Below, piece by piece: positions 24,229 through 25,844 of a stretch of DNA of 64,000 bases; the stretch's first letter is position 1, and each line of letters begins with the position of its first letter. The DNA is from a virus, in the IMG/VR virus record IMGVR_UViG_3300003323_001383; one strand, 5' to 3'. The notes beneath the pieces are model-generated. The model saw only the letters and a program-made list of their open reading frames with translations, ran no database searches and had not been told where the DNA came from. Made by a program: the position numbers and the translations under genes.

Positions 24229-24542
24229 AAGTAGACCCGCCTCTTCGTCGGCGCCTCGTCCGGAGGGGACTGAAGGAACCCCATCATCCCTGACGGGGCC
24301 TCCTCTTCCGGATCCGGGGAGACCGGCTCCGCGGGCTCGGGATCGGGCTCTGGCTCGGGATCGACAGCCTCGGGCTCTGGCTCCACAACCTCGGTCGCGG
24401 GCTCCGGAGCCGGGGCCGAGAACGCCCCTTCCGTCGCTATGAACGCAAAGTTGCACTTCGGGGAGCAGTAGAGCGCGCCGAGGTAGAGAATGGCCCTTCC
24501 GCAATGCCGGCAGGGCCCGTGGTTGACGCTAGGGCTTCCCAA
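24225..24542 (-). CDS. small zinc-ribbon protein with Pro/Glu-rich tail
   Basis: CRHCG...CSPKC. Confidence 0.5.
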   Translation of the reverse strand: MGSPSVNHGPCRHCGRAILYLGALYCSPKCNFAFIATEGAFSAPAPEPATEVVEPEPEAVDPEPEPDPEPAEPVSPDPEEEAPSGMMGFLQSPPDEAPTKRRVYF

Positions 24543-25458
24543 GCCTCTCCTTCGCGACGGCCACGATGTCGTCGACTCCCGCGTTCCTCGGGATCTCCCC
24601 GGCGCGGATCATCGCCTCGAGCTTGTCCATCGCGGCCTTCAGCTCCTTCGACGGCGGGATGCCCAGCGCGGCGGACACCGCCAGGCCGAGGCCCTTCGGG
24701 AGCCTCGGCGCGGCGGCCTCGGCCCGGATGGCGTCCACGCGCTCCCGGAGCCTTCCGAGGGAGGCGAGGATAGCCTGCCGCTTGCTGTCCCGCCCGGTCG
24801 TGATGTCGGCCGAGGAAAGGGACATGACGTCCTCCAGGCGGTCCCCGAGGTCCGTCATGAGGCGGCGTACCGCCGAGTCTGTCCACTCTCCCTCGAAGGC
24901 CTCGACGCGGCCGAGGAAGAGGATGACGTCGGAGATCCGCGCGGTCTCCTCCCCGGCGAACAGCCTTGACGACTTCGCGAAGTCGAGGAACATCCTCGAC
25001 CCGAGCCCCTCGTGTCCGTGGAACGAGACCTTTCCTCCCTCGCGGGAGAAGGTGCGGACCTTCCCGACGTCGTGGTAGAGCGCCGACCACCTGATGACCG
25101 GCCGCGCCTCTGACTGGGCGACCACCTTCTTCGTGTGGTCCCAGAGGTCCTTGTGTCCCTGCGACCCGCCGCCGAACCCGATCATGCGGTCCACGTGCTT
25201 GAAGAACGAGATGGCGGCGAGGTTCCGGAGCTCCTCGAGCGCGACGTCCGGGCGGCGGCCGCAGAGGACGGCGTCCAAGAGCTCGCGCGCGCCCCGCGGG
25301 TCCTCCCGAACGAGGGACTCCATGTCGCCCGGGTGGAGGACCCACGCCCCGCGCGGCCTCCGGTCGCAGGACAGGTCCGACGCGCGCCGCAGCGCCGCGC
25401 GGGCGCGCTCGGCCTGGATGTCGTCCTGCATGTCCCTCAGCCGCCTCTCGTAGCTCAC
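24529..25458 (-). CDS. HD-domain phosphohydrolase (309 aa)
   Basis: His/Asp motifs DLWDHT, LYHDVGK, FHGHEGLG; GTG start overlaps the upstream TGA (GTGA). Confidence 0.65.
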   Translation of the reverse strand: MSYERRLRDMQDDIQAERARAALRRASDLSCDRRPRGAWVLHPGDMESLVREDPRGARELLDAVLCGRRPDVALEELRNLAAISFFKHVDRMIGFGGGSQGHKDLWDHTKKVVAQSEARPVIRWSALYHDVGKVRTFSREGGKVSFHGHEGLGSRMFLDFAKSSRLFAGEETARISDVILFLGRVEAFEGEWTDSAVRRLMTDLGDRLEDVMSLSSADITTGRDSKRQAILASLGRLRERVDAIRAEAAAPRLPKGLGLAVSAALGIPPSKELKAAMDKLEAMIRAGEIPRNAGVDDIVAVAKERLGKP

Positions 25459-25844
25459 GGTCCCTTGTACGCCTGGAGGCGCTTGACGTACTGGACTGCC
25501 TCGCCCCTCCTGATGGGGCCGAGGGCAACCATGGTCATCGTGTTGGGGGCAAGCTCCGTGCGCCCGAGGTCGACGACCTTCGCGTGCGGGACCTTCGTGC
25601 CCTGCAGGGCCTCGAGCAGCTTCAGGAGCTGCTTTTCTCCCGCGGCGAGCACTATCTTCGGGTAGTCCTTCTTCTCCCACTCCTCGAGCTCGCGGACTAT
25701 CTTGTACTCGACGAAGGACTCCGCGTTCCTGATGCAGAGGTGCGTGGCGTGCCCGCACTGGGCCCCGAACTTTCCGTAGCTCATGTTGAGGTCGGGCCTC
25801 GCCACGAGGTACATGACGATCTCCTGCGGGTCGGGGGACGGCAT
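25455..25844 (-). CDS. peptidyl-tRNA hydrolase, PTH2 family
   Basis: MSYGKFGAQCGHA and VVDLGRTELAPNTMTMVALGP match PTH2 signature regions. Confidence 0.65.
   Translation of the reverse strand: MPSPDPQEIVMYLVARPDLNMSYGKFGAQCGHATHLCIRNAESFVEYKIVRELEEWEKKDYPKIVLAAGEKQLLKLLEALQGTKVPHAKVVDLGRTELAPNTMTMVALGPIRRGEAVQYVKRLQAYKGP

Follow-up and report, generated by a model that had tools for sequence, protein, structure and literature searches.

We analyzed a 64-kb window (64,000 nucleotides of the IMG/VR virus record IMGVR_UViG_3300003323_001383; "the window" denotes this whole stretch) that encodes two members of the PTH2 family of peptidyl-tRNA hydrolases, here termed PTH2a and PTH2b. We found that genes of the PTH2b type are strongly associated, across viral contigs, with tRNA genes bearing stop anticodons, i.e., suppressor tRNAs. 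PTH2a is followed by a gene coding for an HD domain protein, and PTH2b lies between an extracytoplasmic function (ECF) sigma factor gene and a string of genes ending in two suppressor tRNAs (Table 1). An earlier note on this DNA had placed two divergent PTH2 paralogs and an HD hydrolase at positions 24529 to 25844 and assigned the paralogs to different operons. PTH2a indeed lies within that interval, whereas PTH2b, although a genuine match to PF01981, lies outside it. A distance of 10 kb separates the two copies, and the intervening DNA holds two tRNAs, a gene for an 877-amino-acid protein, and a transfer-messenger RNA (tmRNA) gene with a promoter-like site of its own, so that an organization into different operons is plausible. 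The divergence is borne out by a mutual identity of 25%. The profile searches that the note had proposed are passed by both PTH2 copies (PF01981) and by the HD protein (PF01966), so neither PTH2 assignment lacks profile support.

PTH2b was missed when the window was searched with PTH2a by using tblastn and was located with a profile built from homologues. It matches positions 2 to 104 of the 115 positions of PF01981 (E = 2e-9; 38.1 bits against a cutoff of 23) and also matches phrog_1866 (E = 1.2e-13). Its scores against the NCBIfam models NF003314 (29; equivalog cutoff, 126) and TIGR00283 (27.4; cutoff, 82) indicate that it is not an equivalog. The AlphaFold2 model (predicted local distance difference test [pLDDT] score, 94.9) retrieves Pth2 family chains as its top 14 Foldseek hits in the PDB, each with a probability of 1.00, and superposes on the Pth2 structures 3erj, 2zv3, 1wn2, and 1q7s with template modeling (TM) scores of 0.74 to 0.80. 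PTH2b is 42.6% identical to a Bixzunavirus mycobacteriophage protein annotated as "peptidyl tRNA hydrolase," which is represented in 207 phage records. It thus shares the fold of the archaeal and eukaryotic Pth2 enzymes but departs from them in several respects. Position 18, where canonical Pth2 has a lysine, is a serine in PTH2b and S, A, P, L, F, or Q in its relatives, and the subfamily alignment contains no conserved lysine in the vicinity of this position. We take the lysine replaced here to be the residue needed for catalysis in archaeal Pth2, as defined by work on the Sulfolobus solfataricus enzyme. The subfamily further displays a deletion of two residues before the glycine and of a seven-residue loop after the conserved aspartate, and it possesses an invariant S-N-H motif of its own. 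R11 is invariant in the subfamily, and the aspartate equivalent, D80, is invariant together with D13, Q22, H25, S45, N46, E78, and T86 in an alignment of 28 sequences reaching down to 45% identity. Judged by these sequence features, PTH2b is a member of a distinct subfamily and not simply a second peptidyl-tRNA hydrolase.

In a whole-library profile search, the PTH2b profile matched 1,247 clusters (at 50% identity) with E values of ≤1e-10. The subfamily appears to be restricted to phages; when 185,579 species genomes were scanned with a single pattern of limited sensitivity, no relative was recovered, which for that reason is weak evidence for such a restriction. The missing and variable lysine equivalent and the loop deleted across the subfamily, in combination with a preserved fold, raise the alternative that PTH2b is a non-catalytic tRNA binder that shields or chaperones the acceptor end against the host Pth, nucleases, or competition with release factors. 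We regard this as rather improbable, since the invariant residues from D13 through T86 look like an active site rather than a mere binding surface and include the aspartate and histidine common to active Pth2 enzymes.

The string of genes to which PTH2b belongs follows one of two promoter-like sites in the window (0.4 were expected in shuffled sequences; both are consensus matches only). The GTG start of the sigma factor gene overlaps the stop codon of an upstream gene for a 120-amino-acid protein (GTGA), and its own TGA stop overlaps the TTG start of PTH2b by 4 nucleotides (TTGA). The latter overlap had been pointed out previously as a coupling of the two genes, and it holds up on several counts: it is present in the sequence, it recurs in the relative L015, the start that it implies is supported by a public gene call of 107 amino acids (P0135), and the upstream product is a bona fide sigma factor by TIGR02937 (75.6 bits; cutoff, 42.9), comprising regions 2 and 4 only. 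The orf110 product downstream of PTH2b retrieved no Pfam or PHROG match. The next gene codes for a metallophosphoesterase related to ApaH-type phosphatases (NF001204; E = 3e-23), the phosphatase of Pnkp (TIGR04075; E = 5e-18), and NinI-like proteins (phrog_246; E = 1.5e-28), and it occupies the same position in the relatives L003 and L015. The two suppressor tRNA genes lie 1.1 kb downstream of PTH2b, and their anticodon loop, CU-UUA-AA, can be read directly from the sequence. Copy 2 is 72% identical to a tRNA(tca) at the equivalent position in L015. Within the clade of the window, the tRNA at this position is of the UUA (window and L003) or the UCA (L015) type; on a distant 349-kb contig, a CUA tRNA lies 1.2 kb from the PTH2b-type gene.

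Genes for anti-sigma factors typically follow directly after those of their ECF sigma factors, and the 4-nucleotide overlap in the window and L015 would accommodate a role for PTH2b as an anti-sigma-type regulator of the coupled sigma factor. We give this explanation hardly any credence. None of 66 other loci with a PTH2b-type gene has a sigma factor homologue beside it, which by itself makes an anti-sigma role unlikely, and in L016 the overlapping upstream gene codes for a protein with no sigma domain. Moreover, the Bixzunavirus gene lies in a tRNA array, and PTH2b has the fold of enzymes that are not known to bind sigma factors. At 43019-43723 (- strand), the window has another, divergent sigma-like gene (Sigma70_r2 only, 25.7 bits), which was considered as the ECF partner of PTH2 and rejected, as no PTH2 gene follows it.

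Because stop-anticodon tRNAs were found at the same position in relatives of the window, we scanned 66 PTH2b-type loci from viral contigs for tRNAs and collapsed them into 51 lineages at 70% protein identity. Stop-anticodon tRNAs were detected in 42 of the 66 loci; these 46 tRNAs, mostly with the anticodon CUA, some with UCA, and one with UUA, all share the strand of the PTH2b-type gene. Counted by lineage, 35 of 51 have such a tRNA (CUA, UCA, or UUA) on the same strand within 5 kb, and in 19 of 51 it begins 0 to 300 nucleotides past the stop codon of the PTH2b-type gene. The Rfam tRNA model confirmed the suppressor in 24 of the 27 loci tested. For 34 of 42 suppressors, the best match from another locus is again a suppressor (chance level, 0.19), and pairs with different stop anticodons retain 73 to 81% identity. 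Their acceptor stems and discriminator bases vary, and an amino acid identity could not be inferred from these elements. The Lak-A1 megaphage and Tenacibaculum phage pT24, which is in culture, show the pairing as well, the tRNA of pT24 being annotated as tRNA-Sup.

These observations bear on the simplest explanation of the locus, namely, that both PTH2 proteins are ordinary, redundant hydrolases, that the HD protein is a generic phosphohydrolase, and that the nearness of the suppressors reflects the habit of such genes to reside in tRNA arrays. This is in essence the published reading for the PTH2 genes of jumbo phages and of mycobacteriophage tRNA arrays (PMC7824862, PMC5966550, PMC5852040, PMC6102473), and it accords with the presence of some tRNA in 60 of the 66 PTH2b-type loci and with the position of the PTH2b-type gene of the Bixzunavirus HyRo within an array of 30 tRNAs with a tmRNA. 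We nevertheless consider it unlikely. Of the tRNAs in PTH2b-type loci, 16% are suppressors, as opposed to none of the 279 tRNAs in 80 control loci centered on HD/CCA genes (1.14 Mb) and 1 of the 65 tRNAs in 21 PTH2a-type loci, all of them from tRNA-rich phage regions (Fisher tests: p = 5e-15 for tRNAs, p = 9e-20 for loci). In many PTH2b-type loci, the suppressor is the sole tRNA in the 10-kb locus and begins only tens of bases past the stop codon. Finally, the loss of the canonical lysine throughout the subfamily would be unexpected in a simple backup enzyme. The suppressor association is therefore a strong one of the gene neighborhood type, and it pertains to the PTH2b type only, not to PTH2a or the HD protein. 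The suppressor link envisaged in the earlier note survives in this narrower form, and without any sign that TAA is read as sense in the window.

Suppressor tRNAs could also mark the recoding of stop codons, with PTH2b being part of the machinery. In Lak megaphages, a tRNA(tta) gene lies near a gene of the PTH2b type. Lak phages have been reported as users of an alternative code. Within the window, no coding-like open reading frame (ORF) runs through an in-frame TAA, the sole candidate being an antisense shadow ORF, and TAA terminates just 2 of 62 ORFs (TGA, 36; TAG, 24). In an ORF coverage test of 43 suppressor-bearing loci, reading the matching stop codon as sense brought no specific gain, although this test is crude and saturates at high GC content. 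In the phage XacN1, which has CUA suppressors and a PTH, nothing was found by its authors behind the amber stops (PMC5852040). We accordingly view recoding as highly improbable. We also evaluated a read-through fusion of PTH2b and orf110, since the ATG at 35470 follows the TAA stop in the same frame at a distance of 9 nucleotides; the arrangement is not conserved, orf110 being in another frame in L003 and the junction in L015 having a TAG stop and a different next gene, and we attribute it to coincidence.

Table 1. Genes, RNAs, and a promoter-like site around the two PTH2 genes of the window
Feature	Coordinates	Strand	Remarks
PTH2b	35480..35803	-	107 amino acids, TTG start, TAA stop; short PTH2-like protein
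tRNA, anticodon UUA (ochre-suppressor type), copy 1	34303..34376	-	ARAGORN; Rfam tRNA, 59 bits
tRNA, anticodon UUA (ochre-suppressor type), copy 2	34225..34299	-	ARAGORN; Rfam tRNA, 62.1 bits
Metallophosphoesterase, lambda-phosphatase/ApaH/Pnkp-like	34383..35189	-	PF00149, E = 1.8e-14; directly upstream of suppressor tRNAs
orf110	35138..35470	-	110 amino acids, between PTH2b and phosphatase; ends in EVMDS
ECF-type sigma factor	35800..36276	-	158 amino acids; Sigma70_r2, E = 2e-13; r4_2, E = 3e-12
Promoter-like site	36748..36776	-	TTGACA-17-TAATAT, 10/12 matches; upstream of orf120-ECF sigma-PTH2b-orf110-phosphatase-tRNA-Sup x2
PTH2a	25455..25844	-	129 amino acids, TGA stop; canonical PTH2-family peptidyl-tRNA hydrolase by profile
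HD/HDIG protein	24529..25458	-	Likely start ATG 25431 (300 amino acids); alternative GTG 25458 (309 amino acids)
158-amino-acid protein (orf158)	25848..26324	-	Upstream of PTH2a; RHH-like N-terminal stretch; weak BrnA-like match, E = 1.4e-3
RRM-type RNA-binding protein	26390..26755	-	PF00076, E = 1.9e-19; upstream neighbor of PTH2a-HD pair, synteny in six relatives
tmRNA	28971-29318	-	Rfam RF00023, 85.1 bits, and ARAGORN; tag ANDNSIAAAA; between the two PTH2 genes

PTH2a is a straightforward member of the family. It covers positions 2 to 114 of the 115 positions of PF01981 (E = 8.9e-26; 90.8 bits; cutoff, 23) and recovers solved Pth2/Bit1 chains with E values of 2e-11, aligning end to end with the archaeal and eukaryotic enzymes (S. 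solfataricus, 1xty; Pyrococcus horikoshii, 1wn2; Methanocaldococcus jannaschii, 2zv3; human PTRH2/Bit1, 1q7s), with which it shares the R-x-D-L, G-K, A-Q-x-x-H, and D-x-G-x-T motifs. Its scores fall below the equivalog cutoffs of NF003314 Pth2 (E = 1.4e-20; 73.5 bits against 126) and TIGR00283 (56.7 against 82), and we therefore assign it to a divergent phage clade, as a family member and not an equivalog. PTH2a and its relatives retain the G-K ahead of A-Q-x-x-H as well as D-x-G-R-T; K25 (in S-Y-G-K-F-G-A-Q) and D92 (in V-V-D-L-G-R-T), which are nearly invariant (≥90%) in the clade, align with K18 and D86 of the S. solfataricus enzyme. We take the latter two to be its catalytic residues, following Fromant et al. 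An N-terminal PDPxE(I/L)VMY motif is common to PTH2a and its 130-amino-acid relatives P0003 and P0004, and this conservation favors the ATG at 25844 as the start. The gene order RRM-orf158-PTH2a-HD is retained in six related loci down to approximately 60% identity of PTH2a, with orf158 keeping its position in L003, L007, L009, L010, L011, and L014.

The HD protein had been described simply as an HD hydrolase. The domain is indeed present, scoring 24 bits with PF01966 (cutoff, 22) and 28.9 bits with the HDIG model TIGR00277 (cutoff, 27.6), but this label proves too generic. Residues 61 to 282 match positions 214 to 444 of the 466 positions of TIGR02692 (tRNA_CCA_actino; E = 7.4e-26), which is the closest NCBIfam model, with 90.8 bits, far under its equivalog cutoff of 438.8. 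By sequence the protein aligns with residues 306 to 474 of PDB 3wfo, i.e., the body and tail. The AlphaFold2 model (pLDDT, 95.8) likewise retrieves 17 Foldseek hits with E values of ≤0.001, all of them the "tRNA processing enzyme" entries 3wfo to 3wfs, with query-normalized TM scores of 0.48 to 0.57. Across 57 homologues, no variation was seen at the predicted metal ligands H108, H129-D130, H149, and D218 or at K133. Approximately 400 homologues were identified, mostly stand-alone proteins of 250 to 315 amino acids for which no PF01743 nucleotidyltransferase head is recorded; full-length CCA-adding enzymes with that head are only distant relatives (28 to 39% identity). A separately encoded head was sought and rejected, as a profile of this domain matched nothing in the 64-kb window. 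On the basis of its sequence and modeled structure, the HD protein is most readily described as the neck, body, and tail of a class II CCA-adding enzyme (e.g., Escherichia coli Cca and Mycobacterium tuberculosis Rv3907c) without the nucleotidyltransferase head. The loss of the head, combined with the retention of the HD ligands and of the neck, body, and tail, which in such enzymes bind the acceptor-TpsiC arm of tRNA, predicts a phosphohydrolase of tRNA 3' ends that, unlike its full-length homologues, cannot add CCA. In the actinobacterial (mycobacterial) CCA-adding enzyme, the HDIG domain is a phosphatase, the activity being abolished by mutation of the HD motif, and in the E. coli enzyme it has 2',3'-cyclic phosphodiesterase activity and reportedly clears such phosphates from the ends of tRNA (PMC10673834). 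The headless form recurs on viral contigs of 90 to 450 kb.

The PTH2a and HD genes are adjacent and codirectional. The GTGA overlap from which coupling had been proposed is present in the letters (25458-25455), but translation probably does not begin at this GTG. A GAGGGA stands ahead of the ATG at 25431, this ATG is the counterpart of the start codon in L003, the closest relative, and it is the start chosen in public gene calls (P0015, 300 amino acids). With this start, the gap between the genes is 23 nucleotides, and in relatives it ranges from 2 to 71 nucleotides. Translational coupling of the pair is hence doubtful.

From the domain identities, folds, and conserved residues, we infer a set of activities and substrates that would converge on the same end of the tRNA. 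We propose, with slightly better than even confidence, that the two regions jointly constitute a phage kit that keeps tRNA 3' ends usable, organized in two modules, PTH2a-HD and PTH2b-suppressor. In the first module (RRM protein-orf158-PTH2a-HD), PTH2a would strip peptidyl or N-blocked aminoacyl groups off tRNA, and the HD protein would remove 2',3'-cyclic phosphates, 3'-phosphates, and possibly pyrophosphates from tRNA 3' ends, leaving the host CCA enzyme to resynthesize them. Together they would clear both types of block of the acceptor end, either during heavy phage translation or after the action of host toxins that target tRNA ends. The rescue of peptidyl-tRNA that had been ascribed to both PTH2 copies is reasonable for PTH2a, in keeping with the published reading for jumbo phages (PMC7824862), but fits poorly with the absence of the canonical lysine and loop in PTH2b. 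In the second module (ECF sigma-PTH2b-orf110-lambda-type phosphatase-two tRNA-Sup[UUA]), PTH2b would most likely act on the ester bond of the coexpressed tRNA, either deacylating a mischarged suppressor or recycling its peptidyl or blocked form, such that a stop-reading tRNA remains usable without poisoning translation.

As for the purpose of suppression, we infer from the gene order and the statistical link, tentatively and with less than even confidence, that PTH2b and the suppressor tRNA could form a cassette of two parts, which moves between large phages, freely exchanges the three stop anticodons, and supplies the tRNA with a dedicated partner enzyme. The partner might be an editing deacylase for a tRNA whose anticodon misleads synthetases, or it might act as a switch that times read-through. 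If this proposal is correct, phages that use the standard code deliberately manipulate termination, in host or phage genes, by means of a tRNA-enzyme pair. The metallophosphoesterase may be a third member of such a cassette. A homologue (E = 1e-56) lies at 7128-7955 of L124, an unrelated viral contig of 427 kb with 37% GC, between the PTH2b-type gene and a tRNA(tca). In L016 (6841-7614), on the distant 349-kb contig, the PTH2b-type gene is situated two genes upstream of a methionine aminopeptidase-like (Peptidase_M24) gene.

The selective reason for the first module could, alternatively, be counterdefense, with the PTH2a-HD pair, and perhaps the phosphatase, serving mainly to undo the blocks that toxins of the host place on the acceptor ends of tRNAs. 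The toxins in question would be GNAT toxins, which acetylate aminoacyl-tRNA; enzymes of the toxSAS/CapRel type, which attach pyrophosphate to the CCA end; nucleotidyltransferases of the MenT type; and nucleases that leave cyclic phosphates. There is precedent for several of the steps. Pth detoxifies TacT-acetylated tRNA (PMC9241777). The toxSAS enzymes are antiphage effectors whose tRNA modification is reversed by a phage hydrolase, PaSpo of Salmonella phage SSU5, an HD superfamily enzyme that removes the pyrophosphate from the CCA end (PMC11245113); PaSpo, which belongs to a different HD family, that of the RelA/SpoT hydrolase domain, is a functional analogue for the HD protein of the window. 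The HD protein itself unites an intact HD site with the portion of a CCA enzyme that binds tRNA, and Iyer et al. class phage PTH2 and CCA enzymes as RNA repair in conflicts (PMC7824862). Against this, the analysis identified no toxin or defense system as a target, no toxSAS enzyme is known for the host, and the HD domain of CCA enzymes is not known to act on pyrophosphorylated tRNA. Counterdefense as the main function is, in our estimate, possible though somewhat unlikely; it overlaps with the proposed 3'-end maintenance kit, the chemistry being identical and the selective reason different.

Another way in which phages respond to damaged tRNA is the T4-type system of Pnkp and RNA ligase, to which the bacterial Pnkp/Hen1 system can be compared. 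The metallophosphoesterase of the window matches the phosphatase domain of Pnkp and lambda phosphatase, which both possess cyclic phosphodiesterase activity (PMC2190708). However, no kinase or ligase was found beside it, and those systems in principle address breaks in the anticodon loop, as opposed to the acceptor end.

Several observations weigh against a two-module kit with a suppressor cassette. In 16 of the 51 PTH2b lineages, there is no stop-anticodon tRNA within 5 kb, and the control loci to which the PTH2b-type loci were compared were picked by a different protein and are not lineage matched. In HyRo, the tRNA(cta) 250 nucleotides downstream of the PTH2b-type gene was called by ARAGORN only and falls under the Rfam threshold, for which reason it was not counted. 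Lacking the canonical lysine and loop, PTH2b may not hydrolyze peptidyl-tRNA at all. What suppressor tRNAs do in phages with the standard code is in turn unexplained (PMC5852040). With respect to the first module, the relative L012 has the HD gene without PTH2a, and a general PTH2-HD partnership had to be rejected, since a PTH2 gene occurs within 8 kb in only 2 of approximately 30 other loci with a headless HD gene on viral contigs. The adjacency of PTH2a and HD is thus specific to a clade, and a functional partnership is weaker than the gene order suggests.

The PTH2b-type loci that are free of suppressors are distinguished by another oddity. They often have tRNAs with the anticodons AAU, AAA, AAC, and AAG approximately 100 to 1300 nucleotides upstream, frequently in pairs (L097, L100, L102-L104, L113, L122, L123, L132, L138, L140, and L153). 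Such A-wobble anticodons are very unusual for bacteria, and one of these loci has a possible four-base anticodon. The PTH2b family may service odd phage tRNAs in general.

PTH2 genes, even two per genome, have already been reported in large phages, and the finding as first noted is in this respect ordinary. The published cases include Bxz1 gp154, Sinorhizobium phage phiM12 gp226, XacN1 ORF295, and Atu_ph07 gp256 and gp680, with PTH2a being approximately 32% identical to the phiM12 type and PTH2b grouping with the Bixzunavirus protein. In these phages, too, the genes are found together with phage tRNAs, tmRNA, and a CCA enzyme: jumbo phages encode PTH2 along with CCA enzymes (Iyer et al. 2021, PMC7824862), a PTH2-like gene lies in the tRNA arrays of cluster C mycobacteriophages together with tmRNA (Morgado and Vicente 2018, PMC5966550), and Atu_ph07 combines its two PTHs with a UCA suppressor (PMC6102473). 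The published accounts enumerate these genes individually. In the literature that we searched, no report joins "suppressor tRNA" with "PTH2," distinguishes the two subfamilies from each other, or ties either of them to suppressors; what is new here is the link of the PTH2b subfamily to suppressor tRNAs, of which we found no description in that literature. Both types can recur in one genome: the 436-kb contig IMGVR_UViG_3300032782_000001 has a PTH2b-type and a PTH2a-type gene (L106 and L165), indicating that two-type genomes are recurrent, and the PTH2b-type gene of this contig has two tRNA(tca) genes and a tmRNA nearby.

These results have several ramifications. Suppressor tRNAs are common in large phages without recoding, their purpose is unexplained, and a protein family that travels with them offers an experimental handle. 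Two culturable systems contain the PTH2b family: Tenacibaculum phage pT24 and the cluster C mycobacteriophages, the neighboring tRNA of the latter lacking confirmation by Rfam. The label "peptidyl tRNA hydrolase" in hundreds of phage genomes covers two different things, one of which lacks a residue presumably required for that activity. The family of headless CCA enzymes, in turn, constitutes a second widespread candidate for the repair of tRNA 3' ends or for counterdefense.

The broader context of the locus is that of a phage. The window has a GC content of 68% and codes for a family A DNA polymerase, a DnaB-type helicase, an SNF2 helicase, dCTP deaminase, DnaJ, HNH and GIY-YIG endonucleases, and a Dam methylase, in addition to 11 tRNAs and one tmRNA. 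It is part of a large, high-GC genome, probably of jumbo size. Close relatives are found on metagenomic contigs of 88 to 274 kb. Two of these, L014 and L015 (contigs Ga0672836_0000003 and Ga0672836_0000001, respectively), come from the same sample (3300082277); a 274-kb contig from it ends in the sigma factor, PTH2b, phosphatase, and tRNA genes, and a 160-kb contig ends in the genes for a vault-like protein, PTH2a, and the HD protein. The two ends continue each other in the gene order of the window, which suggests that the genome of this relative exceeds 430 kb.

The tmRNA between the two PTH2 genes is part of this context and a member of neither PTH2 operon. It is preceded by a promoter-like sequence (TTGACC-17-TAGGAT at 29357-29329) and is kept in L003, L011, L012, and L014, with tags that differ slightly among the relatives. 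Nine further tRNAs (Tyr, two Lys, Gln, Asp, Asn, two Met, and Trp) form a cluster at 60675-63391 on the + strand, interspersed with small ORFs. The suppressors and most of these clustered tRNAs lack a full encoded CCA end and so depend on a CCA-adding enzyme.

The 877-amino-acid protein (31343-33976, - strand) contains the shoulder and repeat domains of the major vault protein (PF11978, E = 2e-19; PF17795, E = 1e-8), a domain unusual for a phage, and is kept in L003, L012, and L014. Two stand-alone response regulator receiver domains with no output domain (29332-29718 and 36738-37124, both on the - strand) are also kept in relatives. Finally, the tetrapeptide VM(E/D)S occurs six times in the six-frame translation of the window, and all six occurrences directly precede a stop codon (ORF ends at 16363, 31342, 35138, 59098, 62198, and 63844; consensus, V-x-[E/H]-V-M-[E/D]-S-stop). 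Since the serine and stop codons vary between the sites, this is a C-terminal motif at the protein level, for which a function as a tag for sorting or degradation is conceivable. The proteins that bear it are otherwise unrelated and mostly small; one of them is the product of orf110, the gene that follows PTH2b.

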